64,000 nucleotides of DNA from a virus. Within the stretch, counting starts at the first letter, position 1, and each line of letters starts with the position of its first letter. The translations under genes were made by a program, and so were the position numbers. The notes beneath the pieces are model-generated. The model had not been told where the DNA came from. It worked only from the letters and a program-made list of their open reading frames with translations, and did not search any database. Location of the stretch: positions 32,095 through 96,094 of IMG/VR virus record IMGVR_UViG_3300047157_000174; one strand, written 5' to 3'. Shown piece by piece: positions 11,797 through 43,313 of this stretch.

Positions 11797-13542
11797 TTAA
11801 TGCATTAAAGCCCATTTACCTTTATATTGTGCATTGTTTAATGTTCTTGCTGATGCTGTAAATGAAACCTCTATTGCACCTTTATCTTCGGGGAAAGGAA
11901 TATCAACAGTGTTTATTATAAAATCTGTTAATTTTAATTTAATAAATTCTCCTGATTCCTTAGTAAAGTTCAATTCAATAAAACCTACTGATTCATTATC
12001 TTTTCTTAATTCATCCCAAAGTGTTGTATCTGTAATCAATGCTGTCATTGAAATCTCATATGTTCTTTGTGCAGGTATATGTTCATTCATAACTTGCCTA
12101 CTTGTATTTCCGATGTATCTAGCAGGTGTAATATTATTATTTATAGTGATAGAACCTGATTTAACTCTAGCATATGTTTCACTAAACACTTTCAACGCAC
12201 CATCAGAAAACATAAATGGGTAATTATCTGAAGCAGTAGCACTAAAGTTTTGTAAATCACTTGTGTTTAATTTACCATTATGCGGCACATAATCATCTGC
12301 TTCAAGCATAACAATTGCTCCAACCGGAAAACTAGAAGTTAATGCTGTAATTGTTAAGGTGTTAGTTGATTTTGCAGACCATGTAAACTCAACTCCGTTA
12401 ATAGTACCTCTACCTGTACTTCCAAAGCCACTAGCGTCAGCAAGAACTAATGATGTAGCGTTAGCAGTATAAGCAGTAGCGACGGTATTTTGAACTACGG
12501 AATTAGAAGGTGCATCAAAAACTCTCCTACAAACTAAATCTAAACTAGTTTTTAATTCTGATTCTGATTCAAAATTAAGAGTTAAGGTATTAACTTGACA
12601 ACCCGTAAATATCCGAGAATATATATTCTCATGTGGGGTTAGATTATCAACGGGAGTGCTTGCAGACACACCTGCTTTTCTATATGATACATCTAACCCG
12701 AAAGAAGGAAGGGAAGCACCGTTGGTTTCGTCAAAAGTATAAGTCAAAAAATCAGCAGAAGCAATTTCATCATAAGCAGGTAAGTTACTAAGAGTGCCTT
12801 CGACAGTATCGGTTGTCGTTGAAAGAGGTGGGTATTCTATTCCCCCTGTTATCACTCTCGAAATACCAACCCCCCCACTATTGTAGATAAATTTATTTTC
12901 AGTTGAGGCATCCCATGCTTCCGAACTATCACTGCCACTATTTGTTAATGCAGATACTTTTCCTAAAGCATAAAATAACCAAGAACCGTTATTCATTGAT
13001 ATATCTAAAGAACCTCCACTAACGGTTTCTGCACCTTTATATTGTAAACCAATATTTCTAGTATTTCCTCCTACTAAGTTTAGTGAAACTAACTGAGCGT
13101 CAACGCTAGGAGGTGAGAATGAATTAACTAACCCTAACCAATTATCTGACAATAATTTAGGACTTCCTAATGCACTATTAGTATAACTAGTAGGTGCAAT
13201 AACAGGAGCGCCAAAACTCAATAATGTAACATGAACGACTTCTGTACCTGTGGTTATCACCGATACATCACTATCTAAAGTAAAACTTTTAGAATCATTA
13301 GAATTGACACTAGCGTAGAAAACAGCCCCTCCTGTTCCGCTTACAACCTTTACCCTACATCCTTGATATAAATTAGTAATAAGTTTAAATTTTTCTTGGT
13401 CGGTTGTTTCCAAAACTACAATGTTTAAATTAGGAACTTCGGCTGAACCAAAAGTAACTACACAATCATCAAAATACATATCCATTTCAGGCACTAAAGT
13501 AGCCATTGTCCCTGCGCCTACAAACACTTCATTACTTACCAT
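11797..13542 (-). CDS. Major tail tube protein with accessory domains
   Basis: ETVSGGSL, FTGCQVNTLTL and SGSITINNNI motifs typical of archaeal-virus tail tube proteins; upstream of chaperone. Confidence 0.75.
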   Translation of the reverse strand: MVSNEVFVGAGTMATLVPEMDMYFDDCVVTFGSAEVPNLNIVVLETTDQEKFKLITNLYQGCRVKVVSGTGGAVFYASVNSNDSKSFTLDSDVSVITTGTEVVHVTLLSFGAPVIAPTSYTNSALGSPKLLSDNWLGLVNSFSPPSVDAQLVSLNLVGGNTRNIGLQYKGAETVSGGSLDISMNNGSWLFYALGKVSALTNSGSDSSEAWDASTENKFIYNSGGVGISRVITGGIEYPPLSTTTDTVEGTLSNLPAYDEIASADFLTYTFDETNGASLPSFGLDVSYRKAGVSASTPVDNLTPHENIYSRIFTGCQVNTLTLNFESESELKTSLDLVCRRVFDAPSNSVVQNTVATAYTANATSLVLADASGFGSTGRGTINGVEFTWSAKSTNTLTITALTSSFPVGAIVMLEADDYVPHNGKLNTSDLQNFSATASDNYPFMFSDGALKVFSETYARVKSGSITINNNITPARYIGNTSRQVMNEHIPAQRTYEISMTALITDTTLWDELRKDNESVGFIELNFTKESGEFIKLKLTDFIINTVDIPFPEDKGAIEVSFTASARTLNNAQYKGKWALMH

Positions 13543-14082: not shown

Positions 14083-14276
14083 GCACTCATCTCCTTTTCA
14101 ATATCCTTAACTAATTCTGCACTAAGAACATCTATTGCATTATTCAAAATATCATCTTCTGAAAAACTAATATCGAACCCCAACTCTGATTCTAATTCCT
14201 TTAGAATTAGATTACGTTCCTCTTGTATTCTAATTAATTCAGTAAGTCTTTGATGAAAGTTTCTCATATTAATCAC
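14070..14276 (-). CDS. Hypothetical protein (neck region)
   Basis: Co-oriented ORF overlapping both neighbours. Confidence 0.55.
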   Translation of the reverse strand: MINMRNFHQRLTELIRIQEERNLILKELESELGFDISFSEDDILNNAIDVLSAELVKDIEKEMSAWMK

Positions 14277-15349
14277 GAAATAAAATGTATTAGATTTTTC
14301 TTACCATCAATAATTTTATTTGCCTCTTCAAGTAAAATATCATGTTTAGTTTTCAAATCTATGTTAGAACCTGTCTCTGCAATCATAATAGAATTATCAT
14401 CATGTCGAATAACTTCTGCTGCTACTAATTTAGTAGCGGCTTCGTGTATAGGAGCAGGTACTCTTCCATCTCCGGCTACATAAGTTACTCTAATAGAATG
14501 GTTTTGTACATACGGAAACTCTCTTCTAAAAAATATCTTACCTTCACTATCAATAGTCCAATAATCTCCCATTCTATTTTGGTCTTGATTATCAGTAAAA
14601 CTTGTAACTGAACCAAAGTTAGAAGTCAAAGTACAGGCTGAACCATCCTCACCCATTAATAAAGAAGAAATAATTACAGTTTTACTATCTTCTGAATCAG
14701 TAGTTGCATAAAAGAAATCCGAAATATGCACATTAGTATTACCATTTGCAGTAACAGATTTAGGTGCTACCTCTCCTGTAAACTTAGCAGTTTTATGTGG
14801 GAAAACTTCATTGATAGCATCCACTAACTGACTAGCAGTAGTTTTAGGGCCGAAGTTATCATAAAAATGCGTACTCTCAACTAAGTTAAAAGTGTAAGAA
14901 CCTACTGTTAATGAAATAGTCCAAGCACTATTTGTTACAGATGTTGGTAATGTTATTTTAGCAGTAGCAGAAGCCAAATCTTTGTATTCATTTCCCTGCC
15001 AAACTTCTAATCTTACTATTTTCTGAACTTTAGGTTGCGACAATTGAACAAAACCAACATAATCTTTCCATATAGATACAGGATAAGCCCCTTTATTCCA
15101 ACCATCAAAAGAAAAATATTCATCCTTATGTATTATAGGACGATATGATTGTTTGATACCGTCATCTATTTTTTCTTCTACTCTTTTTATTATCTTACCA
15201 ACTTCTGCTCTTGTAGGAGTAGTACTATCACTAAAAGCACTAATTTGTAATAGATTAGAAACATCTGTATGAGTAGTATAATACCCAAATCCAATATTAT
15301 AATTTACGTCTATATTTGTGAAATCGCTTGGTGAACTTACTTTACCCAT
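14273..15349 (-). CDS. Head-tail adaptor / connector
   Basis: N-terminal YTT..DV and C-terminal IRVTYVAG...VPAPIHEAATKLVA, typical of gp6/gp15-like connectors, with a central insertion. Confidence 0.75.
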   Translation of the reverse strand: MGKVSSPSDFTNIDVNYNIGFGYYTTHTDVSNLLQISAFSDSTTPTRAEVGKIIKRVEEKIDDGIKQSYRPIIHKDEYFSFDGWNKGAYPVSIWKDYVGFVQLSQPKVQKIVRLEVWQGNEYKDLASATAKITLPTSVTNSAWTISLTVGSYTFNLVESTHFYDNFGPKTTASQLVDAINEVFPHKTAKFTGEVAPKSVTANGNTNVHISDFFYATTDSEDSKTVIISSLLMGEDGSACTLTSNFGSVTSFTDNQDQNRMGDYWTIDSEGKIFFRREFPYVQNHSIRVTYVAGDGRVPAPIHEAATKLVAAEVIRHDDNSIMIAETGSNIDLKTKHDILLEEANKIIDGKKNLIHFIS

Positions 15350-15353
15350 ACTA

Positions 15354-18300
15354 TCATACCCTTCCTTCTTCTCTCGAATATCTGTTTCTTGCAGGTAATA
15401 TTATATCAGTAATTGCGTCTCTTTCCGGTTGACTTAATCTTTCGGGAACATAATCTATTACCTCAATCATTTTATTGTTCACTTCCCTTTTCCTTCCGGT
15501 AGGTTTTGCAACTTTTTTAGGAGGTCTTCTATCAGAACTCCTAAACTTATTAGTTTGACCTGCGGGTTCAAAATCTATTTTATCCATAGAATCAAAAGTA
15601 GATTTATTTTCCTTCAAAATGGGTATAAAAGAAACATCCTCCAAAACTTCAGCAAATCCTTTTTGTTCTATTTTTTTATTATATATTTCCTTTAAAAACA
15701 TTATACTATACGCTGCTTTGATACCGTCTATATCATACTGTCCTTCTGTTTTTTTAGGTAAACTTCCACTAAGATTAGATGTAAAATCAGGGTCTAATAA
15801 ATCAATCAATCTAACATTTTTACTATCATCAAAAGTAAACTTTAATAGTGAAAAATCTTGGAAAGCAGCCTTTACATTTTCTCTAACGCTATCACTCATC
15901 CAAAAGAACATCCAATAAAATACATCGTCTTCATATCCGCTTTCTATATCTGCTTTTAATAACATTTTACCAAACTGTTCATAATAATTATTTTCTTTCG
16001 CTTTCTTTCTTCTAGCAAGTTCAGCCTGACTTTCTGCATATTCATCACTTGCTATATTTTTACTAGGTTTGGGTGGCTGTGTCATCTCAAATCTTTTAGC
16101 ATCTCTATCATATCTATCTTGAGCAGTTTCCATATCCATCTGTTGTTCAGGATTTTTAAATTCATCTGTTGAACCATCATCTATATCATCGAGGTCTAAT
16201 TTTTTATTCTTATTATAATTATATTTTATTGTTTCTAATATATTCTTTATATAATCCTCGTTTTGTTTATCTAAAAATTCCTTATTTTTTTCAAAGTATT
16301 TTTTAGCATCTTGACTCAAACCAAACATTATATCTAAAACTTTTTTCCATGTGTTTAAACCAAAAATTTCGTTGTCAAATTCTTTAATTTGTTTTTCATT
16401 TAAGGTCTCAAACCATTTTATAAAAGGCTCATTTCTTACTTTATAATATTCATAATATGCCTCATAATCATCGGGTCTTATTGTATATTCTCCACCGCCA
16501 CTATAAATTTCCTTTCCTCTAAGTTCTTCAGCAGTTCTAGGACTATCTTTGTAACGTGTCGTAACGTATTCGCCTGTTTCGGGGTCTTTCTCTAATTGTA
16601 AAACATCCTCAAAAGACACAGTTTTTTCTTTGAAGTATTTTTCCGGCATCCCTAAATTTTTAATCTCTTCAATATACATTTCTATTGCTTCTATTAATTT
16701 AGGCTCATTTAATTTATTAGTGTTAACTAATTCTGTAATGTTAATTCCTTGTTTTTCCTCGATACTTTCTATTTTTCTATCTAAGACAGTCAAATCCCTA
16801 TTTATTGCGCTTAATAGTGTTTTAATATTTTGAGACTTTTTACTTCCTGTTCCATAAAAGAACCCCAATACAAAATCATCTAAATCTTCATCGTTAATTT
16901 CTTCCTTTAAAGGAGTTGCTTTACCTTTAGTATATTCAAAGAATTTAGTATTTTCAAATGCACCTTCTAAAGAATCCTTTAAGTTTTGAGTACCTACTAA
17001 TATTTTATCAATTTGATTGATTGCTTTCTTTTTTGCATCAATTTCAGATTGGTTTTCTTTATCTTCATAAGTTTCTAAATATTTTTTCAATCCTTCTACT
17101 AATTTATCATCCAAAATATTTTTTTTCTCTGTATTAATCCCACCCTTAGCATCTGCACCTTGATGTTCGTTAATATCTTTTTTACTAATAAAATACTTAT
17201 AATTTAATTTCATTTTACCGACTTCTAATTTTCTATTAACAGGAGTTAATCTCAGTAAAATATCACTTCTAATATCTGCTAATCCTTTTATTGGCTTAAC
17301 TTCGTCTAACAATATTTTTTGTATTCTTAGTTTTACTTTATCTTCATCTGATAAGTTTTCAACCTCCTTTTTAAGTTCTTTAATGACATCTCGCGTGGAA
17401 AGTTTTTGTTTTTTTGTATTTGACATTATAGAATAAAGTGTATAGCCACCATATTCATTACCGCTTTTTCCCATCCAATCTTGCACATGAGTTATTAATC
17501 TGTCATCTTTTTTTGCCAACATTTGTTGTGCTACCATTCGGTCTTTTACTTTAACAGGTATTGCGGGCAGTATAATGTTGCCTAGTTCATTAGTACCCAA
17601 AACTTCTCTCATAGTCTCAAATAAAATCTCTCTTTTTTCCTTTTCCGGTATTGCATTTATTGCCGCTTCTAATATATTTTCTTCCTTTCTAATATCAAAT
17701 ATTCTTTCTATCAATATAAGAGAACCCTTCGGTGTAGATTTACTTTCCACCAATTTACCTACTCTTTCTTCTTGTTTAATAATAGTAATAGTTTCTAATA
17801 CTGATTTCAATAACTGTTTAGAAAAATCCATTTTTTCTTCTTCATCCTCTTCAGGATTTTTATACGCTAACAGACCTTCTGAATCTAATTCGACATCATC
17901 ATCAGTATTGCCTTCTTCGTCACCATACTCCCCTTCTACTGTTTCAGAATACTCAGAATCTCCACCTTCTTTTTCTCTGTATATTTCCTTTATTTTGTTT
18001 ACTATTTCTTTAATATCATCAACGTCTAATTCTTTTTCTTTAATGTAAGTATTACTATTATCTTGCATTAAACCAATAACATCTTTAATCATATTTTCAG
18101 AAAAATCTATTTCTTTTAACGCATTAGTAGTATTACTTAGAGATTCCTTTTTACGTTTAATTTCTTCTTCTCTTTCATTTTGATATTTTTTATATTTAGC
18201 ATCAGATTCTCCTTTCTTTTGTTCTCTTTCTGTTCTAACAAAAACTCTTCCTTCAATTATATTATCCAACCAATCATATATTTCACCATTGTTGTTACCA

Positions 18301-19334
18301 AAATTGTTAAACTCTTCAAAAGCCTCTTCAAAATTCTCATCCTCATCTTTACCCGAAGAAGTAAATACAAAACTATCTGTACCTAATGTTCCCATATTTG
18401 CTTCTATCATCAACTCTTTCATATATTCATATGTATCTACTGTGATAGAAAATTCAGTATCATTTGTAGTTATTTTAATATGTTTCATTAGTTTTTTAGG
18501 ATTAAAAATTGGATTAGATTTATCAGCAGCATTGATTATTTTGTTATCCATCCTCGCCCCGATATTCTTTATTCTTTTTGTTTCTTTTCTTAAATCTTTT
18601 TTTGTCATAGGATTATCAGTTTCCTGAGAATCATCATACTGTTGATTGAGTTTTTCCAATTCTCTTTCTAGATAATCCTTTTTTTCTTCACTCGTTTTAT
18701 ATTCCTGTCGTTTACCCGTCTTAGTATAATCTTCATCAACTGCTTGGTTAATTTTTTCAGAGTTTAAATCTGCTAGTTTTAAATCCTTCAAACGCTCAGT
18801 TATGTTTACAGTAAGTACAGTTTTACCATTTGGTTTAATTAAAAAATCATTATCCTCCAATGTTTTTAATACCGCAATTATTTCAGATTTCCCTATTATT
18901 TTATTAACTTCTTTAATACAGTCTTCTAATTCGTTTAGCATTTCATCTGCATTATTAGGATATTCTCCTTCAATATCATCTTCATCTATATTCAAATATT
19001 GAGAATATCTTTTCTCACTATCTTTCGCTTTGTTTGTATTGTTTTTGTTTCCTATAAAAGTTTTTGAAATCAAGAAATCTAAAAAGAATCCTTTTACGCC
19101 ATCAGAAACTCCTTCAAAACTTTTATCCACAACAATACTATAATTTGCGGGCTTATTTGTTATATTTTTGAGTTCCTTTTCATCAGTTATTGTAACTAAT
19201 TCACCTTCCACTCTTTTCTTATAAACAGGTTTTAATGTAGAAGTTAAAGGTTTTATTTTTTTAACTTCTTTTAAAGTTAAATTAAAAGAAACAGGTACGT
19301 CATTAATTCCAATGTCAGTACTAATTTCTACCAT
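15354..19334 (-). CDS. Very large charged protein (1326 aa), possible internal virion protein
   Basis: Long K/E/D-rich ORF in the structural operon; internal LLK-S, IIK-Q and LLK-A sites after acidic linkers. Confidence 0.5.
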   Translation of the reverse strand: MVEISTDIGINDVPVSFNLTLKEVKKIKPLTSTLKPVYKKRVEGELVTITDEKELKNITNKPANYSIVVDKSFEGVSDGVKGFFLDFLISKTFIGNKNNTNKAKDSEKRYSQYLNIDEDDIEGEYPNNADEMLNELEDCIKEVNKIIGKSEIIAVLKTLEDNDFLIKPNGKTVLTVNITERLKDLKLADLNSEKINQAVDEDYTKTGKRQEYKTSEEKKDYLERELEKLNQQYDDSQETDNPMTKKDLRKETKRIKNIGARMDNKIINAADKSNPIFNPKKLMKHIKITTNDTEFSITVDTYEYMKELMIEANMGTLGTDSFVFTSSGKDEDENFEEAFEEFNNFGNNNGEIYDWLDNIIEGRVFVRTEREQKKGESDAKYKKYQNEREEEIKRKKESLSNTTNALKEIDFSENMIKDVIGLMQDNSNTYIKEKELDVDDIKEIVNKIKEIYREKEGGDSEYSETVEGEYGDEEGNTDDDVELDSEGLLAYKNPEEDEEEKMDFSKQLLKSVLETITIIKQEERVGKLVESKSTPKGSLILIERIFDIRKEENILEAAINAIPEKEKREILFETMREVLGTNELGNIILPAIPVKVKDRMVAQQMLAKKDDRLITHVQDWMGKSGNEYGGYTLYSIMSNTKKQKLSTRDVIKELKKEVENLSDEDKVKLRIQKILLDEVKPIKGLADIRSDILLRLTPVNRKLEVGKMKLNYKYFISKKDINEHQGADAKGGINTEKKNILDDKLVEGLKKYLETYEDKENQSEIDAKKKAINQIDKILVGTQNLKDSLEGAFENTKFFEYTKGKATPLKEEINDEDLDDFVLGFFYGTGSKKSQNIKTLLSAINRDLTVLDRKIESIEEKQGINITELVNTNKLNEPKLIEAIEMYIEEIKNLGMPEKYFKEKTVSFEDVLQLEKDPETGEYVTTRYKDSPRTAEELRGKEIYSGGGEYTIRPDDYEAYYEYYKVRNEPFIKWFETLNEKQIKEFDNEIFGLNTWKKVLDIMFGLSQDAKKYFEKNKEFLDKQNEDYIKNILETIKYNYNKNKKLDLDDIDDGSTDEFKNPEQQMDMETAQDRYDRDAKRFEMTQPPKPSKNIASDEYAESQAELARRKKAKENNYYEQFGKMLLKADIESGYEDDVFYWMFFWMSDSVRENVKAAFQDFSLLKFTFDDSKNVRLIDLLDPDFTSNLSGSLPKKTEGQYDIDGIKAAYSIMFLKEIYNKKIEQKGFAEVLEDVSFIPILKENKSTFDSMDKIDFEPAGQTNKFRSSDRRPPKKVAKPTGRKREVNNKMIEVIDYVPERLSQPERDAITDIILPARNRYSREEGRV

Positions 19335-19347
19335 TCATTAAACCACC

Positions 19348-20061
19348 TTAAGCAAGCCATTTGGCCCATGCAACTGCTTTACCCAATCCTTGTGCTAGAC
19401 CTAGACCACTTTGAGGTGGAGTATATGTTGGTTGACCTGTTTGTGGGTCAATCCAATAAGGATTATTCATGTTGTCATAACCACTAGGAGGAATAGGATA
19501 ACCGCTACCGTTGTTCATAGCCATTTGTTGTTGGTTTAGAGTATTGTTAAAATTAGTACTCATGTTTCCTCCTTGTATTTGACTTGGATTTAACCCTTGA
19601 GGATTCATACCCATTTGAGGATTCATACCCATGTTGGTAGAAGGAGCAGGTGCAGATGGAGAACTAAACCCTTGTGCTTCGAGATACTGTTGTTTAGCCA
19701 TTCTTCTTTGCATTACAACTTCACTATTGATAGCAGTAGCCAATAGATTTTGTATATCTAAATCAATATTTTCTTGCGTTATAGCAGTAAATTCATTTAA
19801 CGCATCGGGTGTAATAGAAAGGTTTCCACTAGAACTTTGACTAAATTCTAATTTAACTAACATCTGACTAACACTTCTAGTAACTGTATCTTCAATTAGT
19901 TTTTCTAATGCCGTTAAGAATGATTCTCCATGATATTGAAAGAAATCTTCTACATGGTTTTCTTGTAAAGTTAGAAGATTATTCATTGCCTTGAATTGTG
20001 TTTGTTGTTGCGCTCCTATTTGAGTCGCAAGGTTACTATTACTTGTACCAAATAATCCCAT
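19348..20061 (-). CDS. Q/M/N-rich protein with C-terminal amphipathic helix
   Basis: MNPQ(M)G repeats; ends GLAQGLGKAVAWAKWLA; starts MG. Confidence 0.6.
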   Translation of the reverse strand: MGLFGTSNSNLATQIGAQQQTQFKAMNNLLTLQENHVEDFFQYHGESFLTALEKLIEDTVTRSVSQMLVKLEFSQSSSGNLSITPDALNEFTAITQENIDLDIQNLLATAINSEVVMQRRMAKQQYLEAQGFSSPSAPAPSTNMGMNPQMGMNPQGLNPSQIQGGNMSTNFNNTLNQQQMAMNNGSGYPIPPSGYDNMNNPYWIDPQTGQPTYTPPQSGLGLAQGLGKAVAWAKWLA

Positions 20062-20064
20062 TAA

Positions 20065-20754
20065 TCACTCCCCCCCTGTTTCAACATTGACAACGTTAAC
20101 GCCTTCGGTTAATAGAGTTTTGACTCTTTCATTAATATTGTTAGTTTCAATAATTAATCTAAATAATTCTTCTTCTTTATTTTCAACACCGTTGTTTGGA
20201 GGTCGGATAGTCCAACCCATAGCAGAAAGAGATTGCATATCTGTTTGTTTTAATGTTGTCATTGGGCCTGATGTTACTAAGTTAACAGGATTTAAACTTT
20301 TAGCAGATGGAATATATGCACTAAAAGAAAGACCATGTTCCTCTGCTAATATTTGCTGTTCTAACATCTCATATTGTCTATGAATTGCAGCGTGTTTTTC
20401 ACAATATGTTCCTCTCATGGGATAGCCTTTTCTTACTTTATGTAAAGGTAGAGGAGGTCTCCTAACATCACCTGATTCCCAAACTTTTTGTGAACCACAA
20501 ACCACACATCTATCTTTTAAATTATATTTGAATCGGTATGGTATTTTCAAAAATTTCTTTTTTTCGGGCATCAAAACTTTGATTATTTCTTTCAATTGTT
20601 TTTTGGGCTTTAGGTTTTTATACTCATATTGTATAATTGAACCTGCTGCTCTTGCGGCAGAAAATCTATCTAAAAATGGGTTAGTTCCCACATGGGCTGA
20701 CTGTGCGCCAATAAGGTTTGTTGGGTTGTAGTTCATTGTCATGTGGTAATTCAC
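20065..20754 (-). CDS. Zn-finger and coiled-coil hypothetical protein
   Basis: CVVC...YCEKH motif and C-terminal heptads. Confidence 0.55.
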   Translation of the reverse strand: MNYHMTMNYNPTNLIGAQSAHVGTNPFLDRFSAARAAGSIIQYEYKNLKPKKQLKEIIKVLMPEKKKFLKIPYRFKYNLKDRCVVCGSQKVWESGDVRRPPLPLHKVRKGYPMRGTYCEKHAAIHRQYEMLEQQILAEEHGLSFSAYIPSAKSLNPVNLVTSGPMTTLKQTDMQSLSAMGWTIRPPNNGVENKEEELFRLIIETNNINERVKTLLTEGVNVVNVETGGE

Positions 20755-20756
20755 CC

Positions 20757-21425
20757 TTAGTAGTCCTTTATCATTGTTAGGATTCCTCTATATACCATCT
20801 CTGAATCAGATTTGGCACTTACTATATATTTGTAGCATGGTATTCCTTTATCATTTAACTTCTGCATACCATTTCTAAAGGATTCAAATATTGGATGTTT
20901 TTCTATTGTTTCATAATCATATTTGTCTTTCCACAAATCATGTTTGTTAGCCCAAAGACCAACTGCTACGGGATAATCATGTAACTTTTTCTTTTTTCTT
21001 TTTCCGCCAATATTCCAATAAGGACTACAAATAGTATCTACCAAAAAAGTCCAACATAATTGTTGTTCTATATCATAGTGCTTATCCATATGTCTATCAT
21101 CTAACATAAAAATTATATATTTAACTTTTCGAGTTCTCATATCTTCTACCCACTCTTGCCAAAATACTGTTTCACCTCCGACATCAGCAGTTTTAACAGT
21201 ATGAGCATCACCGTCTAATTTTACATATTTTCTTGAGGCTCTATGTAGCCCTACGGTTCTATCTGTAATAGAAGGAACTTCACCTCTAGTTCTTAATTGA
21301 TGATGTAATGTAGTTTTACCTGCTTTACTTGCTCCATATACCCCAAATGGTATAGAATGTAATCTTTGGTAAACTTTATTCATACCTTCTACTAATAGAA
21401 TAGCGAAGCCCGCCATTACTGACAT
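20757..21425 (-). CDS. Small GTPase, Arf/Sar-like (Ras superfamily)
   Basis: G1 GASKAGKT, G2 T(VG), G3 DVGG, G4 NKHD and G5 SAK all present; hydrophobic N-terminal helix. Confidence 0.85.
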   Translation of the reverse strand: MSVMAGFAILLVEGMNKVYQRLHSIPFGVYGASKAGKTTLHHQLRTRGEVPSITDRTVGLHRASRKYVKLDGDAHTVKTADVGGETVFWQEWVEDMRTRKVKYIIFMLDDRHMDKHYDIEQQLCWTFLVDTICSPYWNIGGKRKKKKLHDYPVAVGLWANKHDLWKDKYDYETIEKHPIFESFRNGMQKLNDKGIPCYKYIVSAKSDSEMVYRGILTMIKDY

Positions 21426-21431
21426 TATATA

Positions 21432-21656
21432 TCACCATAAATGATGCCATAAATTAACTATCCCATTCCATGTAGAAGTAAACAAATTATAACCAAACAA
21501 AGATATTGCATGGCCGACCAAGAAACTAATTCCACAAGCAATACCACTCCAAAGAAAAAATCTTGCTCTTAAAAACCAAATATCAGCAGAATGCGCTCTT
21601 TGTAAATCATAGGCTAATGTGGATTCATCGAACCCCATTAGGATTTCTCCTACCAT
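21432..21656 (-). CDS. Small membrane protein
   Basis: Hydrophobic segment FFLWSGIACGISFLVGHAISLFG plus an amphipathic tail. Confidence 0.6.
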   Translation of the reverse strand: MVGEILMGFDESTLAYDLQRAHSADIWFLRARFFLWSGIACGISFLVGHAISLFGYNLFTSTWNGIVNLWHHLW

Positions 21657-21664
21657 ATAATCAC

Positions 21665-22090
21665 CTACTCATTGAACCCTGTTAAAAATGTTGGGCTAAT
21701 TGTATTCCCTTCAAACTGTTGTGATTGTTGTTGCATTGCAGGTAAATTAGCATCTCCATAGAAAGGTTGACCGAATGATTGATTGAAACTTCTAAGTGAT
21801 TCTCTAACTCTTTTACGATTTTCCTCATCTCTTGCTTTTCTATTCCAATAAGCATCTATTTTTCTTTGTAATAAAAAATCTTCAATAATATCATTTAACA
21901 TTAAATCAAATAATGCCTTCAATAACATAATACCTCCTACTGTACATATTCCAAACAGTACTGCGTGGGATAATCCCGTGTATGGAAAGTCAACTCCATA
22001 TATAGTGTAAAAATAAATGTTAGTGCCACTAATAGCACCAACGAAAAGTATAGTCATTACTAATCTTGTATCTGTATCAATACTAGGCAT
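21665..22090 (-). CDS. Two-TM membrane protein (holin-like topology)
   Basis: Two N-terminal hydrophobic segments and a charged coiled C-terminus. Confidence 0.6.
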   Translation of the reverse strand: MPSIDTDTRLVMTILFVGAISGTNIYFYTIYGVDFPYTGLSHAVLFGICTVGGIMLLKALFDLMLNDIIEDFLLQRKIDAYWNRKARDEENRKRVRESLRSFNQSFGQPFYGDANLPAMQQQSQQFEGNTISPTFLTGFNE

Positions 22091-22094
22091 TGTT

Positions 22095-22370
22095 TCAACT
22101 CCATGTGCAAGAGTATGAACCGCCCGAACCTGTTAGAATTGCAGTTATTCCTGTACCCATTGACCTATTGTGCATATCAAATTCTATTGTGCTATTAGCA
22201 GTTAGAATTAATCTAGCAACCTCATCTGCTGAACCAACAGATGTATTGTTATGGTCGTATATTTTTAATGTAGCAGTTCCGGTAGAACAAAAATGGATGC
22301 TTGTTAATTTGCACCTGCCATCATTTACTACTGCACTTGCAGTTTTTACAGGACTACCTGCGGAAACCAT
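22095..22370 (-). CDS. Small beta-rich protein, possible capsid decoration
   Basis: Close to the MCP; ATLKIYD...IEFD...GI beta-sandwich pattern. Confidence 0.45.
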   Translation of the reverse strand: MVSAGSPVKTASAVVNDGRCKLTSIHFCSTGTATLKIYDHNNTSVGSADEVARLILTANSTIEFDMHNRSMGTGITAILTGSGGSYSCTWS

Positions 22371-22825
22371 TACTTCACTTCCTTTTTAGTAGTAGTCTTT
22401 TTTGCAGGGGTTTTCTTTTTTGCAGGGGTTTTCTTAGCGGCAGGTTTTTTCTCTATTACTTTTTCTTCCTTCGGCAATATAGTTTCAGTTACAGTATCCA
22501 CAACATTTTCTACTGCTGCTTCAACCTTTTTCTTTACAGGAGTTTTTGCTTTCTTAGGATATAATATATCAAGAATATCTCCCTCAACACCTAAGTGCCT
22601 ACGAATTGCTTTTACTCTATTTTCCGGTAAGTTTGCAATATCCTTTTTATCATCTTCTGTAAAGTCTATTTCTATTGATTCATCTCCTAAATACAATGCT
22701 GCGATTCTTGCAGGTACTTCGCAAGGAGCATTTGCATTAATGGAATACAGTGTTTCCCCTGCCCCTCTTATTACTAGTTCGCCATTTCTATGTGTTTTCA
22801 ATTTTACTAAAGCCATAATTATCAA
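22370..22825 (-). CDS. Hypothetical protein with Lys-rich PAKK tail
   Basis: Directly after the MCP; KKPAAKKTPAKKKTPAKK repeats. Confidence 0.6.
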   Translation of the reverse strand: MIIMALVKLKTHRNGELVIRGAGETLYSINANAPCEVPARIAALYLGDESIEIDFTEDDKKDIANLPENRVKAIRRHLGVEGDILDILYPKKAKTPVKKKVEAAVENVVDTVTETILPKEEKVIEKKPAAKKTPAKKKTPAKKTTTKKEVK

Positions 22826-22839
22826 CCCTTTTTTATAGG

Positions 22840-22881
22840 GTAGTAATCCCTACCCCGATACTTCGGAGTAGAGACTACTAC
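22840..22881 (-). terminator. Hairpin downstream of major capsid gene
   Basis: Inverted repeat GTAGTA..TC.CTAC / GTAG.GA.TACTAC in the short intergenic gap after the MCP stop. Confidence 0.45.
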
Positions 22882-22909: not shown

Positions 22910-24313
22910 TTAAGCACTCTTTAGGTTTGTAATTTTACCTTGTCCCTTGAAGAAAGAACAGCAAGTTTCTCCCATAGTGCGGTACATTCCTTGATTTCCA
23001 AGTTTACCAACACCGAATGGGTTTCCACTAGTAATACCATCTTCGAAGTATTGTGTAGGTTTCATTACAGATAGCCATAGGTGGTCGGTATCTAGAACTA
23101 ATATATCACTAATTCTGTTAGATGTGGACTTACCTGTTGACGGCATATCTTTAGCAGGGATGATTGGTATGTCATAGTATGTTGCAACTCTGAAACCAAC
23201 TTCTTGACCCTTGACACCACGAACACCATTATGGGAAGGAACGATTTCTTTCCTATCCATAAATCTCTCTTGTGATTGTAGTAAATCGGAGATTTTCTGA
23301 ATGGTATCGTATCCTGTAATGATAACTTTAGGGTTTCCACCGTTAGTACGGATTCTTCTAATCATATCATTAAGAATACTTAGTGTTAGAACTCTACATT
23401 CACCTGATGTATAACCTGCACCGAAATCAACTTCTGCATCTAGGAAAGATGGAACACCTGTGTAGGTATATGCTCCACTTCCTCCTGATGTGTTAACAGT
23501 AACAGTTCTAGTTGAACCAAAGATAGTAGTAGCATCAGCAAGTTGTGCTGCTGTACCGTTATTTGTTTGGTTGTGGTAGAATACGTCATCATCGGCCATA
23601 GTTGCAATTTCAACAGCAGAAGAAACTATCTTCATCAAAGAAGTGTAGTTCTTCTCAATACCAGTAGTACCGTTCTCTGAGTATTTCTCAAGAGGCATAA
23701 CTAACATTTTGCTCTGAACCTCTGCGTGTAATTTACCCATGTCTTCTCTTACAATAGCACGAATATCACCAACACCATCATCTATTGCAGCCATTTCCAT
23801 TCCTAGTTCTGAGAACTCGAATAGATGTGCAATAGTCTTAGGGCTAACATATAGTTTAGTATATTCAGGAGCAATTGCTCTGAAACCATCTGCACCACCT
23901 AATGTTGCGTTTTCTCCAACACCACCAATTTGGTCTGCTCTAGGAGTTGCTGCATCTGCTGATGAAATACTAGCGGTAACTGCATTAGTACCTGTACCGA
24001 ATGCTGCGTCACTACCACCAATAGGTCGTGATTTCAGAACTCTCCATCCACTAGATGTGTATGGTCTCTTAGCAAGCATTGCTAGAGGGTTTACTTCTTG
24101 GTTTAATACAGACCAAACTTTCTGTCCATATAGTAGGTTGTACAAATCACCTAGACCTGCTGCACCCGTAAATGCATTAGCACTAGTATCGTGAGGAGTA
24201 CCGAAACCACCTACAACTCCACCTGCTTTAAGCAAGGCATTGCCGCTTCCTGTTCCGCCATATCCGTATGTTGCTGCTTCTAAATCTTTCATTGTTTTAA
24301 TATATCCACTCAT
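22910..24313 (-). CDS. Major capsid protein (HK97 fold)
   Basis: Follows the prohead protease; LYGQKVW..LNQE, IRTNGGNPKVIITGY and VATYYDIPII motifs resemble archaeal head-tail virus MCPs. Confidence 0.9.
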   Translation of the reverse strand: MSGYIKTMKDLEAATYGYGGTGSGNALLKAGGVVGGFGTPHDTSANAFTGAAGLGDLYNLLYGQKVWSVLNQEVNPLAMLAKRPYTSSGWRVLKSRPIGGSDAAFGTGTNAVTASISSADAATPRADQIGGVGENATLGGADGFRAIAPEYTKLYVSPKTIAHLFEFSELGMEMAAIDDGVGDIRAIVREDMGKLHAEVQSKMLVMPLEKYSENGTTGIEKNYTSLMKIVSSAVEIATMADDDVFYHNQTNNGTAAQLADATTIFGSTRTVTVNTSGGSGAYTYTGVPSFLDAEVDFGAGYTSGECRVLTLSILNDMIRRIRTNGGNPKVIITGYDTIQKISDLLQSQERFMDRKEIVPSHNGVRGVKGQEVGFRVATYYDIPIIPAKDMPSTGKSTSNRISDILVLDTDHLWLSVMKPTQYFEDGITSGNPFGVGKLGNQGMYRTMGETCCSFFKGQGKITNLKSA

Positions 24314-24325
24314 AATTTCACTTCC

Positions 24326-25510
24326 TTAATTTCCCCTCACAAGAGAATGTACGTCATCCCAAGTCATATTGGCTGCTGCCTCTAAACTTGTAGGTATTCC
24401 TTCCGGTAATGCCATTGACATTTCCGCGCTCTTGCGAATTGTTTCGTCTTTCTCTGATAGAGATTTTCGTAGTAGAGCAAACTCTTCTTTTAGTGCTGCT
24501 ACATCTGTTCTAGCATCGTATGATGCGGATTCTGCTGCTGATTTCTTAACTGCAAGTTCTTCTGAAAGTCTTGCTTCAAATTGCTTAGAAAGATTATCGT
24601 ATGCAAGTTTTTCCATCTGCTCTGCTTTGAATTGTGCATATGCTTTCTCAACATTTTCTGCACTTAGGTTAAGAGTACTAAAGTCCGAAGCCTCTAAGCC
24701 TTCACTCTTTAGTTCAGTAGGTGCAGCAGTAGGCTTACCGCCACTTACTACTAATTCACCTGCTTCGTAGTCTCTAGTTGAATCTTCATCAAGAGCCTTC
24801 TCTTCCATTTCAGATTCATCCATAGATTCTTTTTCCATTTCCTCATCATCATCGGCATCCATATATGCCATTTCATTCTTCGTTACTTCGTCATATTTTC
24901 CTTCCTCTCCGAGTCCGTTAACTTGTTTCATCAAGTCATTCAACTCTTCGAGTGCTTTTTCCAACTTCTCACTCATTGTTTTATCCTCCATTTTTAAAAT
25001 GTCGAATTTTGCTTCGGGATTAATCCCCTTTTCACAGATAGTTACTTCGTGTAACTCCAATCTGTCTATCTCATTGTATTCACCGAACTCATCCGATGTT
25101 TTTTGTTTCTTAGAAATCGCTTGACCTCCAATACTAAAAGAACGTAAAGTTCCTTTTCTAATACTTCTTGAAATTTCTTTTGCTTTTTCTATGTCATCTC
25201 TTAATTTAATAACAACATAAAACCCTACATCATCTACTCCTGTCTTGTGTAGAGTACCATTAGTATCTCTATACTTTTCAATGACTTCTCCTACCTGTAC
25301 ATTAGAATGATTAGACATAACATTCCTATATTTCTTTTCAGACATATATTTTTCAACTGCTTCATCTAACGCCTTCAATGTAATTAAATCATTTTGCTTA
25401 TCTACAATTTCTATTGAAGCATAGCCTCCAATAACTAAATCATCAGACTTGAGAATAGTAAACTCATGTTCTTTATCTACTTGCATTAAAATAGATGGCT
25501 GCATGAGCAT
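24326..25510 (-). CDS. Prohead protease fused to scaffold
   Basis: IGGYAS..VDKQND, NHSN, SFSIGG, LHEVT..GINPEA (HK97/U35 protease); acidic coiled-coil C-terminus. Confidence 0.92.
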   Translation of the reverse strand: MLMQPSILMQVDKEHEFTILKSDDLVIGGYASIEIVDKQNDLITLKALDEAVEKYMSEKKYRNVMSNHSNVQVGEVIEKYRDTNGTLHKTGVDDVGFYVVIKLRDDIEKAKEISRSIRKGTLRSFSIGGQAISKKQKTSDEFGEYNEIDRLELHEVTICEKGINPEAKFDILKMEDKTMSEKLEKALEELNDLMKQVNGLGEEGKYDEVTKNEMAYMDADDDEEMEKESMDESEMEEKALDEDSTRDYEAGELVVSGGKPTAAPTELKSEGLEASDFSTLNLSAENVEKAYAQFKAEQMEKLAYDNLSKQFEARLSEELAVKKSAAESASYDARTDVAALKEEFALLRKSLSEKDETIRKSAEMSMALPEGIPTSLEAAANMTWDDVHSLVRGN

Positions 25511-25543: not shown

Positions 25544-28153
25544 CTAATCGTTAATTTTAGGTGGAAATTCTAAATTGGAATATTTATCCTCTTGAATATT
25601 CCAAACATCTACGTCATCTTCATCCTTCAACATATCTTGTTTTTTACCTGTCCAAACTATCCATGTTTTTTTCTCATTAAGAGGCACTACTCTAACGTGT
25701 ATTCTAGTGTCGAACTTATCTCCTTCTAATTTATATTCATGGTAGCCATCCTTTTGGACTCCTAGAATAACATTTCCCTTGTCTATAACTTTACCACCGT
25801 TTATTTTTTCTGCTACAATAGCAGGGTATTTATTCGATTTACCAAATAAATTATACACATCATCAGTATCTTCAATGTCTATTAACCAAGCAAACCGTTT
25901 TTTCTTATAATCAATTATAAAATTAAGATTGCCGTCTTCTTGTTTAGTTATTGTAAACTCGCCCGTTCTAGATTCTTCTTTATGAATAACCATATCATCT
26001 GTATCTTTTTCTAAAACTTCTTCGTTAGACATGAAAGTATTAGGGTGTTTGTAAATGAACGAATCTTGTTTTTTCATCCAATTCATTAATTTAGATTCGA
26101 GTGAATCAAAAAGACTTTGGTATAAATCCATATGATTTTTTCTAACAAATAGTAATATTTTATCAAACTCTAGAGCATCTTTACCACTATCTAATATTTC
26201 ATTACGAATTGATATTCTTAATTCGGAACGTTTACTTTTTATTAATTGATTTAATTCTTCTTTCCACAAATCAATATTATGCAGAGCATTTTTCTCCATT
26301 AAATTATCGCCCTCAAATCCATATAAAGTATAGCCTTCTAAATTTTCCTTTAATATTATTTCAGCAACACCGTGCGTATCATCTGTAATATAATATCCTT
26401 TCTTAAGTTTTTTAGGTTTTACTAAATCGGATTCCATACCACTCATAATTCTAAATGGCTTAGGAACTTTACCTGCAAGACCCTGTACTAAAGTGCTAAG
26501 AGATTTCTTACTTTTGCTTGCTAATTTTTCTAAAGTAGCAATATTATCAGATTGTGTTACTTCCGGTATTTCTATTACTTTAGCAGAATACAAACTGAAT
26601 CCGTTTTTCTTCTTAGTTACTTCATCAACTTTAACTCTAACAATAGAGCCTATGTCAACATTTATTTTTGTGTTGAGAGCCTTACCAACTTCTAAATATG
26701 CTTTATCTTCATAATCAACAGTAGAATAGTTTCTAGCAACTTCTGCTGTAACAGGGCCGATTCCCATAGTATAAGAATGTAGATTACTTTTTGTCTTTCT
26801 ATCGTTTAATACCACTACATCTAAATCAACAAATTTTTTCCACTTAATCCACTTTGGATTTTTTCTATTTCCTATGTAATATGTAGATTCAATGTCTTTG
26901 ATAACCACACCTTCTGACGCAGGTAGTTTCATAATATCTTGAGAATAGTTTTCAACTTCTTTCTTTGAATCTGCTATTCTAGTATCTTTCTTAGATGGGA
27001 ATGCTAGTTTTTCTGAGGAATGTTGAGCGTATTGATATAATAAAATATTAATTCTTTCTCTTAATGGAGTATCTGTAATATCTTTACCTTCGTGTAACAT
27101 AATATCAAAAACGTGAGCCTTCAATGTGCCTTCTGTTTTTTTGTGGAATACATGAGTGATAGTATCTGCTCGGTGTAACGGTTCATCTTCCATAAACAAC
27201 ATTAATTCTGCATCTAAAATACAATCTCCAAACTGTTTCTTTTCCATATGCTTAACTTGTTCTGAACATTTAGAAGTAATATCCTTTTGATTAAAGGAAT
27301 ATATTTTAACTTCATCATTGAACTTGTGTATTTGTATTCTCATACCATCGTATTTTTCTTGAACAACAAACTCTCCCGTTAACCCCTTAATGTCATCTAA
27401 ATCATCTATCTCGAAAATCCGATACATTGGTTTGTTAGGTTTAATAAAATCTATACCTGCTTTTTTTTCTTGTTCATCATCTGCCTTTGAAATGTCTAAT
27501 TCTAATAATGAATCCCATTGTTCTTCATTATATTTTTCTAGATATATTTTTTCTAATTGTTTAAATCCCTTTTTACATTTAGATTCTATTCTTCTGTTAT
27601 CAGAATCTTCATCACCATAATGTTCCAATATGTAAATAGGTACATCTTTAGGTTCTAAGTCTAACCCCATATATCCCTGCGTTATTTCATCGGGTTTCAT
27701 ACCATGTGCTTTCCAAGATTTTTCCGGTATAGTATTAGCATGAGACCTTACAGCATAATGAATAAATGCTAATAACATTGATTCATTTTTTAGAAACTCT
27801 TTGATTACATTATCTCCTAATTGTTTAGAAAAAGGGTCTGATATTTTATCTGATTTAAACCTAAGATTTTTTACTCCTTCATATATTTCCTTTGCCTGTC
27901 TTGAAGTAGGGTCATATGCCTCATCGGAAAAAGCAGTATCTTCTTTTAGATGTCTTTTCAATTCTCTAGTAAAATCTCCCAAAGAATCATATTGGTCTCT
28001 TACTTCTTTAACTGTTTTTTTCCATTTATTTCCATACTCGGAAGGATTCTCTTTTGCAGAAAGATATGAATATCTTACCCTTTCAAAAAAGTCTAGAACT
28101 CTTTTAGTTAAAGAACTCTTTTCCTTTTCAAATAAAAGTCCTGTTTGTGGCAT
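25544..28153 (-). CDS. lig: ATP-dependent DNA ligase with N- and C-terminal extensions
   Basis: Motif I EKYDGMR, ILDAE, VFD, EGVVIK and KWIKWK, then an OB domain. Confidence 0.92.
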   Translation of the reverse strand: MPQTGLLFEKEKSSLTKRVLDFFERVRYSYLSAKENPSEYGNKWKKTVKEVRDQYDSLGDFTRELKRHLKEDTAFSDEAYDPTSRQAKEIYEGVKNLRFKSDKISDPFSKQLGDNVIKEFLKNESMLLAFIHYAVRSHANTIPEKSWKAHGMKPDEITQGYMGLDLEPKDVPIYILEHYGDEDSDNRRIESKCKKGFKQLEKIYLEKYNEEQWDSLLELDISKADDEQEKKAGIDFIKPNKPMYRIFEIDDLDDIKGLTGEFVVQEKYDGMRIQIHKFNDEVKIYSFNQKDITSKCSEQVKHMEKKQFGDCILDAELMLFMEDEPLHRADTITHVFHKKTEGTLKAHVFDIMLHEGKDITDTPLRERINILLYQYAQHSSEKLAFPSKKDTRIADSKKEVENYSQDIMKLPASEGVVIKDIESTYYIGNRKNPKWIKWKKFVDLDVVVLNDRKTKSNLHSYTMGIGPVTAEVARNYSTVDYEDKAYLEVGKALNTKINVDIGSIVRVKVDEVTKKKNGFSLYSAKVIEIPEVTQSDNIATLEKLASKSKKSLSTLVQGLAGKVPKPFRIMSGMESDLVKPKKLKKGYYITDDTHGVAEIILKENLEGYTLYGFEGDNLMEKNALHNIDLWKEELNQLIKSKRSELRISIRNEILDSGKDALEFDKILLFVRKNHMDLYQSLFDSLESKLMNWMKKQDSFIYKHPNTFMSNEEVLEKDTDDMVIHKEESRTGEFTITKQEDGNLNFIIDYKKKRFAWLIDIEDTDDVYNLFGKSNKYPAIVAEKINGGKVIDKGNVILGVQKDGYHEYKLEGDKFDTRIHVRVVPLNEKKTWIVWTGKKQDMLKDEDDVDVWNIQEDKYSNLEFPPKIND

Positions 28154-32518: not shown

Positions 32519-34196
32519 TCATCCTACTCTCCTCTCTGTTCTCTTATCCACATTTTGATTACCTGCATCTTTAGGTAATCCCTTAAATCTTTTATCCGGC
32601 CCAGTATTCATACTAGGTTTGTTTCTAGTCTTAGGTGGTTCATCAGATTTTACTTTTTCAGGTTGACCTGCTTCTGCTAAACTAGGTTTAGTTCCCGCTT
32701 CCATCATTTGACCTAATTGACTAGCATCAATATCTGTTCCCGCATATGGGTCTGTTTTAAAATCGTCATCACCAGTTTGAGTTTTTCCTTGCTCATCACC
32801 CTCAACAGGTTTGGGCTTAGTATAAATAAATCTACCTTCATCATCCATTTCTACTTCAAATCCTAAGTTCTTTAATTGACCTGCAATGTTAACTTCTATT
32901 TCTCTCTTTCGTAAAACTGCAATTTCATCTTCTTCTTCTGATGGAGGTAAGTTTAAGTTCCCAATCAGTTATTCCAAACTTGAGTTGTAACAAATGGAAA
33001 CACATAATTATTCCAAATAGTTTGAGCCATTTCTACTGCTCTATTAGTAACAAGTATTTGCATACCTTCGTTATTTAATCCTCCACTAGCAGAAGCATCA
33101 GACATAAACACTTTACTAACTCCATAGAAACCCTGAAATCCTATCTCTCAAATCATCTTTAACAGAAATATAGTCCATTTCTTTTAGACTGTCCATAAAC
33201 TTAACCCATTCAATAGAACCCTTACCATTTTCTGCTTCTATTCCCATTACAGGAATAAAGTGTGGGTCTTGTTCCATCTTTTCTTTAACGCCTCTCCAAA
33301 ATGATTTCATAGAATCAATGTTTCTTGTTTGAACAGCCAATAATCCTCTTCGGCATTCTTGCCTTAGAATAAGAAGAATTGACATAATTTTCCATAGCCA
33401 ATAGTGTTGTAATATGATTCCACAGTGTAATTATCGGAGACATCCCATACAAACGTGAAGGAGAATATTTACTGAAATGTACTACTTCTCCCTTAACAAA
33501 ATACTGTTCCTCTCCATTCACTCTATTTACATAATGAACAGGATATAATTCCGAACTACAAGTTTCACATAATTCAGTTTGATGTTGATGTACTCTATCT
33601 CGATGCCTTAAACACACAAATCCGCCTTTACCTCTTTCACCTAATTCATTTGAATAAATATGCATAGTAACAGGGTCTCCTCTGAACACTTCTTTTATTC
33701 GATGCATTCTAACTTTAGAGTTATTATCTAAATAATATTCCTTTACTAATACTAAGTAAGCATCGTCCATTATGTTCAAATCGTCTTCTAATTCTTTAAG
33801 AACATCAATAAATAATTGCTCTGAACAATTAACATATCCATCTAAAAACTTTTTAGCGTATTCTAATTGTTTTGGGTCGGGTTTCTTTAAGTTAGTAGAA
33901 GAACAATCAGAACACATCTTTACTGGTGAAGAGTGTTCTTTACCACAATCTTGACATTTAACTACGAACTTTTCCTCCCAAGTATATCCCCTTCTAAATA
34001 TTTCTTGTTTTAATTGAGTAATACAAGTTCTAACAATAGTGGATTGTTGTACTATGTGGTAAATAATAGGACTTGTCAAAAGATAAGAATTATCTCTTTC
34101 TTGTATTCCCAAATTGTAAACTGTTCTATCAGCAGGTTTAGGAGTGCTATTTCTGAACAAATTAGTGAAGGCAAATCTTCTTTTTTCTTCCGCCAT
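32519..34196 (-). CDS. Portal protein, broken by about 4 single-base insertions
   Basis: Portal motifs (DDAYL, GEVVHF, LYGMSPI, ARMP-RGLL, ISGF-YGVS, SGGLNNEG) continue across ORFs 33315-34196, 33116-33385 and 32519-32848. Removing 4 nt gives 1674 nt = 558 codons. Confidence 0.85.
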
Positions 34197-43302: not shown

Positions 43303-43313
43303 GTTATCACTTT

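Follow-up and report, generated by a model that had tools for sequence, protein, structure and literature searches.

A conserved five-gene cassette around an Arf-like small GTPase in the late gene block of putative magroviruses

What use would a tailed virus of archaea have for an Arf-like small GTPase, and why would such a gene stand among those for the virus head and neck? The question is raised by IMG/VR virus record IMGVR_UViG_3300047157_000174, a complete genome of 96,094 bp with direct terminal repeats, of which bases 32095-96094 (64,000 nucleotides, hereafter the window) were analysed. Because a DNA ligase gene lies embedded among its structural genes, which is a described hallmark of magrovirus groups A and B (PMC5434244), we read this virus as a magrovirus, that is, a virus of Marine Group II (Poseidoniales), archaea that abound in the ocean. 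Five co-directional open reading frames (ORFs) on the minus strand, with intergenic gaps of 2-8 nt, form a cassette at positions 19348-22090 of the window, in which the GTPase is accompanied by two small membrane proteins, a zinc protein and a Q-rich protein. The cassette is real and strongly conserved, and its sequences suggest an Arf-like GTPase system for which a mechanism at the host membrane is plausible.

The GTPase and its cassette

In the direction of transcription, the cassette consists of the following genes (transmembrane, TM, segments were called by hydropathy scan):

21665-22090, minus strand: 141-aa protein with two TM segments (residues 10-28 and 43-61) ahead of a basic helix and a Q-rich tail
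21432-21656, minus strand: 74-aa protein with one TM segment (residues 33-51) and an aromatic-rich C-terminal tail
20757-21425, minus strand: 222-aa Arf-like small GTPase, recognised by its G1-G5 motifs and the family profile
20065-20754, minus strand: 229-aa CCCH zinc protein (C83, C86, C118, H121), with a helical region after the zinc site
19348-20061, minus strand: 237-aa Q/N/M-rich protein (Q 11%, N 10%) with an MGLFG N-terminus

The ORFs sit exactly where the initial annotation of this DNA had placed five packed genes; the two membrane protein genes, described there as flanking the GTPase, both lie upstream of it instead. We retrieved 80 IMG/VR loci of the close lineage (the GTPase search confirmed 140 IMG/VR matches), and the order of the five genes is the same in all 80, as far as each contig extends. 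The GTPase is the best conserved of the five, with 75-100% identity across the close loci as against 65-100% for the capsid protein. The ratio of nonsynonymous to synonymous substitution rates (dN/dS), computed against three or four relatives per gene, was 0.02-0.06 for the GTPase, 0.08-0.26 for its four partners and 0.06-0.14 for the capsid protein; selection on all five cassette genes is purifying, and it is tighter on the GTPase than on the capsid protein. A scan for promoters and terminators gave matches no more frequent than expected from shuffled sequence.

The GTPase carries, in order, G1 (G31-x4-GKT38), the switch-I residue T57, G3 (D81-V-G-G84), G4 (N160-K-H-D163) and G5 (S203-A-K205), and this complete set, as the initial annotation had read it, is invariant in 20 homologues of 62-85% identity. 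Even in a 23-sequence alignment reaching down to 18% identity, the Gly and Lys of G1, the Asp and Gly of G3 and the Asn and Lys of G4 are invariant. The Arf-type DVGG is indeed present, but Glu85 (DVGGE) holds the position of the catalytic Gln, and switch I reads R-T-V-G as against P-T-I-G in Arf. Ahead of G4 stands a polybasic insert, KRKKKK (residues 142-147), and a K/R-rich insert is kept family-wide. At the N-terminus, AlphaFold2 (AF2) predicts a helix over residues 2-22, in which about 12 hydrophobic residues are followed by a basic amphipathic part (hydrophobic moment 0.3-0.4); a hydrophobic or amphipathic N-terminal segment is predicted in all 23 aligned family members. The AF2 model as a whole (predicted local distance difference test, pLDDT, 68; predicted template modelling score, pTM, 0.69; switch region below pLDDT 50) has the alpha/beta fold of small GTPases, matches Rab and Ras chains in Foldseek (probability 1.0, E ~1e-6) and aligns by VIA-align at Z 12-13.4 over 160-180 residues. 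The ordered motifs and the predicted fold together place the protein among the small GTPases of the Ras superfamily (TRAFAC class).

As to the family within that superfamily, the window protein taken alone stays below every Pfam cut-off (SRPRB, PF09439, 22.2 versus 25 bits; Arf, PF00025, 17.8 versus 22.3 bits; further sub-cut-off matches to Roc and MMR_HSR1) and matches no PHROG family, and a profile of its close relatives (A1) found nothing in the PDB better than E 0.01. The family-wide profile (A2), however, matched the Asgard protein GerdArfR1 best (8oun_A, 4.3e-14, full length including the N-terminal helix), followed by Arl3, Arl8, Arf1, Arf6 and Arl1 at 1e-10 to 1e-8, with Ras at ~2e-8 or weaker. 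Three distant family members pass the Pfam Arf cut-off (25.5-36.5 bits); over the 23 members Arf has the best E-value of the Pfam families, and MMR_HSR1, a family of ribosome-binding GTPases, is the one matched by most members (12 of 23). The structural Z scores are tied (LokiRagO 13.4, SR-beta 2fh5_B 13.2, Arl2 13.0, mimivirus Rab 5XC5 12.8, Arf6 12.8, G-alpha-i 12.7), so that the predicted structure does not tell Arf apart from Rag, SR-beta, G-alpha or Rab. The term Arf-like is supported because the family-wide profile matches ArfR and Arl/Arf best, and in our reading the GTPase represents a new viral family whose nearest kin, within the Arf/SR-beta/G-alpha-like part of the superfamily, is Arf; we do not assign it to Arf proper. 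The Arf/Sar identity first proposed for it therefore survives as a likeness: profile comparison favours ArfR, Arl and Arf, but the structure search does not discriminate, and the window protein itself scores below the Pfam cut-off for Arf, as it does for SR-beta, the Pfam family that it matches best.

The family is small and isolated, since an exhaustive hidden Markov model search of 1.84 billion representative proteins returned only 87 clusters at E <= 0.001; among candidates from a collection of 5.8 billion protein clusters, 364 relatives were found at the same threshold. A tblastn search of the GenBank phage collection with the GTPase gave no match. Furthermore, no cellular source of the GTPase was found in a scan of one genome per GTDB species with the motif patterns of the close lineage, the only two matches of which lie in a single metagenome-assembled genome ('MAG: Maricaulis sp. 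isolate IN14'); these contigs (L169, NZMJ01000101.1, and L170, NZMJ01000024.1), whose GTPases are 76% and 62% identical to the window's, we take for mis-binned magrovirus contigs. The most distant relatives (P0152, P0176, P0179, P0191, P0203 and others) are singletons on short contigs. Viral and metagenome scans for P0176, P0179 and P0203 yielded nothing usable, and the single locus recovered for distant relatives (L171) is a GC-rich contig, probably bacterial, with the last 78 residues only.

Partner proteins, second lineage and late genes

In every close locus whose contig extends far enough, the 141-aa membrane protein is encoded upstream of the GTPase; its identity there is 45-96%, its dN/dS is 0.09-0.26, and by the positive-inside rule both of its termini would be cytoplasmic. 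The 74-aa protein is 57-95% identical in the close loci (dN/dS 0.08-0.20).

The zinc protein probably starts at the ATG of residue 5 (20742), because its relatives align from M5. The zinc finger of the initial annotation is borne out as a conserved Cys/Cys/Cys/His site: C83, G87, G110, M113, C118 and H121 never vary, either among the close relatives or in the second lineage described below, and for C86 a nearby Cys substitutes in some relatives. Prediction of a complex between the GTPase and this protein scored 0.00 in both runs, the zinc protein's own fold being uncertain, and so weighs neither way on binding. An ArfGAP-like protein was considered as well and rejected. The ArfGAP zinc finger has the form CxxC-x16-CxxC-x4-R, with an invariant arginine finger four residues past the last zinc ligand; the window protein reads C-E-K-H-A-A-I-H-R, its Arg is replaced by Lys or Met in close relatives and by His in the second lineage, and no Pfam ArfGap match appeared at E <= 1.

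In the Q-rich protein (dN/dS 0.08-0.11), a conserved helix-hairpin-helix core at about residues 36-130 is followed by a disordered Q/M/N/P-rich stretch, a small beta motif at about 190-215 and a Gly/Ala/Trp-rich C-terminal helix. The AF2 model reaches pLDDT 57.6 overall and 70-84 in the core; the composition stands as first described, but the terminal helix singled out with it (residues 223-236) is predicted at low confidence. An ESCRT-III/PspA relationship, raised by the MGLFG N-terminus and the long helical hairpin, was rejected, as there was no Pfam Snf7 match and Foldseek was empty at E <= 0.001, the best rows (prefoldin, MarR, V-ATPase stalk) being generic helical matches of a model with pLDDT 58. 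The beta motif (19411-19480) reads Y-P-I-P-P-S-G-Y ... N-P-Y-W-I-D-P-x-T-G-Q-x-T-Y, invariant in the close lineage and absent from the second; predicted as a small beta sheet (pLDDT ~85), it is reminiscent of a WW domain's first half.

A second magrovirus lineage carries full-length GTPases of ~240 aa, ~30% identical to the window's, on 80 further IMG/VR contigs (several of 90-118 kb), together with a capsid protein related to that of the window (46-54% identity in the C-terminal part). Its cassette runs in the order 2-TM, 1-TM, GTPase, a ~300-aa gene and a ~210-aa Q/M/G-rich gene, after which comes an additional gene for a small membrane protein, in most cases one with two TM helices. The first gene past the GTPase is homologous to the zinc protein (hmmsearch 2e-6; hhalign 96.8%, E 2.7e-10) and the second to the core of the Q-rich protein (hhalign 93.1%, E 3.2e-7); by these profile comparisons the homologous core demonstrably comprises three genes, those of the GTPase, the zinc protein and the Q-rich protein. 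The whole set lies 20-23 kb from the capsid gene and, in 80 of 80 loci, directly upstream of a homologue (34-36% identical) of the window's 226-aa protein at 42646-43326, with the large terminase further on. Since the same order recurs at another site in a lineage of ~30% identity, the cassette travels among the late genes as a unit: it has changed its place as a whole without leaving the block of co-directional late genes. Co-conservation of the five genes, on which the initial proposal depended, is accordingly found in every close locus and, in the same order though elsewhere in the genome, in the second lineage; synteny thus extends over two magrovirus lineages, and the setting inside a late morphogenetic gene block holds in both.

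Two further observations concern the second lineage. In one of its branches (L083 7136-7282, L085 7114-7317, L088 ~7190-7350), a 48-67-aa ORF directly upstream of the cassette (MSRHVSVVM.DDLFAK.EAARG...) resembles a ribbon-helix-helix regulator, which would suggest cassette-specific regulation in that branch. In a 118-kb relative, the capsid-gene match (G002:C1:39694-40275, locus L161) contains one in-frame TGA, which could be a frameshift, a sequencing error or recoding.

In the window, the late genes around the cassette are these:

35545-36978, minus strand: large terminase (Pfam/PHROG scans)
33315-34196, minus strand: portal-like protein (Pfam/PHROG scans)
25544-28153, minus strand: ATP-dependent DNA ligase (Pfam/PHROG scans)
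24326-25510, minus strand: prohead protease (Pfam/PHROG scans)
22910-24313, minus strand: HK97-type major capsid protein, upstream of the cassette (Pfam SU10_MCP 1e-10; PHROG major head protein 4.5e-23)
22370-22825 and 22095-22370, minus strand: two ORFs between the capsid gene and the cassette (ORF list)
15354-19334, minus strand: 1326-aa ORF between the cassette and the adaptor-like gene (ORF list)
14273-15349, minus strand: adaptor-like (neck) protein, downstream of the cassette and the 1326-aa ORF (phrog_17057 1.7e-19; weak match to head-tail adaptor phrog_442, 6e-4)
11797-13542, minus strand: tail tube protein (Pfam/PHROG scans)

The position between capsid and neck genes, given by the initial annotation, is thus right, but the cassette shares the interval with three more genes (22370-22825, 22095-22370 and 15354-19334). 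The gap to the upstream late gene is 4 nt, and that from the last cassette gene to the 1326-aa ORF is 13 nt.

Some of these neighbours deserve mention in their own right. The 1326-aa ORF is K/E/D-rich, matches no family and is hardly conserved even in close relatives, which show either no match or partial matches of 23-45%, apart from one locus at 92%; it could encode a hypervariable virion or injected protein. Directly after the capsid gene, the 151-aa protein at 22370-22825 (17% Lys overall) bears a Lys/Pro/Ala/Thr-rich C-terminal tail like those of histone H1 and diverges fast (28-98% identity between relatives). Between the capsid stop and that gene, at 22841-22880 on the minus strand, an imperfect inverted repeat (~16 bp, 8-nt loop) is followed by CCCTATAAAAAAGGG; this hairpin may stabilise RNA or attenuate transcription, setting the capsid transcript above the downstream genes. 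The 226-aa protein at 42646-43326 (minus strand) has a conserved N-terminal motif, C-x-F-C-Q-H, and because its second-lineage homologues show weak helix-turn-helix and small-terminase-like matches, its gene may open the packaging block.

Additionally, marine metatranscriptomic contigs from two studies match the region at 90-100% identity, covering the genes for capsid protein and protease and, in part, three of the cassette genes, and one identical contig of 374 nt crosses the junction into the first cassette gene. These contigs are compatible with co-transcription and no proof of it, as DNA carry-over is possible and they carry neither strand nor level; their depth, which is lower over the cassette than over the genes for capsid protein and protease, cannot rank the genes, nor do the stretches of the cassette that no contig covers prove anything.

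What the cassette may do

We tentatively favour, at somewhat short of an even chance, the reading that the cassette encodes a virus-made, membrane-docked GTPase switch, which would act late at the inner face of the host cytoplasmic membrane and remodel or breach it, most likely for virion exit. The two small membrane proteins would mark or form the site, with their charged and Q-rich tails in the cytoplasm; the GTP-bound GTPase would dock there through its hydrophobic or amphipathic N-terminal helix and the conserved polybasic hairpin; the zinc protein might regulate the nucleotide cycle in a manner like that of a GTPase-activating protein, by analogy with ArvC and the ArfGAPs; and the Q/M-rich protein would be a recruited effector or scaffold.

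Several lines of evidence point this way. The GTPase has intact motifs and is under the strongest constraint in the region, and the cassette genes keep a fixed order and are tightly spaced. A membrane switch is suggested by the affinity to Arf, by the two candidate membrane-binding elements (the helix and the K/R insert) conserved in both lineages, and by the obligatory linkage to small membrane proteins whose tails are expected to be cytoplasmic, while the constant embedding of the cassette among late genes argues for a late function. Membrane remodelling has a tested archaeal precedent in the GTPase ArvA with its partner ArvC (PMC10927574). Egress is suggested because no machinery of exit is otherwise known: the egress players of tailed archaeal viruses were called 'completely uncharacterized' in a 2024 review (PMC10791045), and no lytic-enzyme family was found among the 39 window ORFs scanned with Pfam, in keeping with the initial annotation, to which no endolysin had been evident.

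Obviously, not everything accords with such a switch, and the following points weigh against it. The residue at the catalytic Gln position varies over the family (E, Q, H, D, A), which leaves the mechanism of hydrolysis unclear. The predicted N-terminal helix, initially described as hydrophobic, is hydrophobic and amphipathic but falls short of the hydropathy of a transmembrane helix: no 19-residue window of the GTPase N-terminus reaches Kyte-Doolittle 1.4, and the segment is both too short and too polar for a transmembrane anchor. None of the four partner proteins matched a known family or fold (Pfam, PHROG, NCBIfam, ESM Atlas, Foldseek); in particular, the 141-aa and the zinc protein gave no Pfam, PHROG or NCBIfam match, and the ESM Atlas returned nothing above noise for the zinc and Q-rich proteins. 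Between the two lineages, the 2-TM proteins are positional counterparts without significant homology (hhalign E 0.011), and the same is true of the 1-TM protein, whose counterpart in position (73-99 aa) showed no significant homology by hhalign. A six-frame search of the 96-kb genome with the models of OapC (PF09845) and OapB (PF09846) gave no match at E <= 0.01, and the control genomes, Haloferax volcanii included, did give matches. Lastly, the place of the cassette in the head-neck gene block would equally suit an assembly or virion protein.

Among the alternatives, the one that survives best, though we consider it unlikely, is that the cassette remodels the membrane for other ends, such as a site for replication or assembly, ArvA-like vesicles serving as decoys or for transfer, or a surface change that blocks superinfection. 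The anatomical evidence set out above applies to it just as well, and the only functionally tested archaeal relative, ArvA, makes vesicles and does so without lysing cells (PMC10927574); indeed, sequence alone does not separate egress from other membrane remodelling. Nevertheless, presumed co-expression with the genes for head, neck and packaging, common to both lineages, accords better with a late function than with an early one in takeover or exclusion.

The cassette proteins might also be components of the virion or of its assembly, either as ejection or pilot proteins opening a channel across the envelope, or with the GTPase as an assembly factor of head or neck. The ejection proteins of T7 (gp14/15/16) and P22 form such a channel through the host envelope during DNA entry, and membrane-active ejection proteins are commonly encoded in structural operons; the window cassette, lying between the capsid and adaptor genes and beside the hypervariable 1326-aa ORF, would be well placed for this. 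In the second lineage, however, it stands 20-23 kb from the capsid gene, and W-x-D-I-L-K, a proposed capsid-loading tag, occurs at none of the five cassette N-termini (0/5). Since, moreover, the GTPase matches no PHROG family and we know of no Ras-superfamily small GTPase that is a component of a tailed virion, we regard this explanation as rather improbable.

Weakest of all, and very doubtful in our view, is a GTPase with a non-membrane target (ribosomes and translation, or a host signalling protein) to which the membrane genes would be linked by operon history only, for although MMR_HSR1 is the Pfam family that most members match and translation GTPases lie only 1-2 Z below the top structural matches, the MMR_HSR1 matches span the generic G domain only, ArvA bears the same misleading annotation (PMC10927574), and strict co-inheritance across ~70% sequence divergence, after relocation, argues for joint function.

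The membrane-docked switch can also be carried further, to a self-contained, GTPase-driven machine that deforms membranes, in which membrane receptors and an Arf-like switch would be joined by a zinc regulator and by a Q-rich protein as coat or scaffold, and by which tailed virions would be released through timed rupture or through budding or vesiculation. We hold this version to be quite unlikely. If true, it would give tailed archaeal viruses their first known egress system, and it would constitute an Arf-type membrane machine outside Asgard archaea and eukaryotes, borne by viruses that could carry such genes from one archaeal lineage to another. Arf-type GTPases hold a central place in the debate about how eukaryotic membrane traffic arose, and they were recently reported as nearly confined to Asgard archaea (10.1101/2024.02.28.582541); a separate Arf-like family, deeply diverged and found in viruses of a different archaeal phylum, broadens that picture, as does ArvA in Euryarchaeota. 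For the exit of tailed archaeal viruses, the cassette offers a concrete set of five genes for expression and testing. We found no description of it in the searchable literature, and the magrovirus papers examined make no mention of a GTPase. New here are the three-gene homologous core found by profile-profile comparison, the relocation mapped against capsid and terminase, the ranking of the genes by dN/dS, the scan of GTDB with one genome for each species, the contigs from RNA libraries, and the comparison with ArvABC together with its negative OapB/OapC test.

Comparison with known systems

Phage holin cassettes share with the viral cassette their small proteins of one or two TM segments with a charged cytoplasmic tail, the company of late genes and the lack of detectable sequence relatives. 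The topology of the two membrane proteins is compatible with holins, which have no sequence signature, and neither protein matched a PHROG or Pfam holin family. The viral cassette differs in being without a detected endolysin in the 39 ORFs scanned and in serving a host without murein; to our knowledge, no holin system contains a GTPase.

SR-beta is an Arf-related GTPase held at the membrane via its N-terminus, and PF09439 is the best single Pfam match of the window GTPase (22.2 bits) as 2fh5_B is its second-best structural match (Z 13.2). The score is nevertheless below the cut-off of 25, the viral N-terminus forms no full transmembrane helix, the setting is a late operon, and no SR-alpha-like partner was detected. 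Giant eukaryotic viruses likewise encode GTPases of the Ras superfamily, such as the mimivirus Rab (PDB 5XC5, structural match Z 12.8). Theirs were captured recently from Rab, Ran or Arf genes of the host, whereas the magrovirus GTPase forms a family of its own, isolated, in a tailed virus of archaea.

The Arf family works by GTP-dependent insertion of an N-terminal helix into the membrane. With Arf, Arl, Sar1 and the Asgard ArfR (GerdArfR1, PDB 8OUN/8OUM), the viral GTPase has in common the DxGG-type G3, the NKxD G4 and a predicted helix before the P-loop. It departs from them in the Glu at the catalytic Gln position, in ~40 extra residues that include the polybasic hairpin before G4, and in its R-T-V-G switch I. 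The host range differs as well, for ArfR is reported to be almost exclusive to Asgard archaea (10.1101/2024.02.28.582541), whereas the viral GTPase belongs to a putative virus of Poseidoniales.

The closest parallel in design is the ArvA-ArvB-ArvC (OapABC) operon of Haloferax volcanii, other Euryarchaeota and DPANN archaea (PMC10927574). Haloferax ArvA is a small GTPase with an N-terminal amphipathic helix that drives vesicle budding; it is annotated as MMR_HSR1, with Arf as its best remote match, and is modulated by ArvC, a zinc-ribbon protein of the same operon (PMC10927574). Judged from this published description, the viral system resembles it in the archaeal-type small GTPase with an N-terminal amphipathic helix, predicted in the viral protein, in the MMR_HSR1/Arf pattern of Pfam matches and in the zinc protein of the same operon. 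The Arv operon has a demonstrated activity, the outward deformation of the cytoplasmic membrane; the viral cassette adds two membrane proteins and a Q-rich protein that have no counterparts in the Arv operon; the likeness between the two lies in their logic rather than in family membership.

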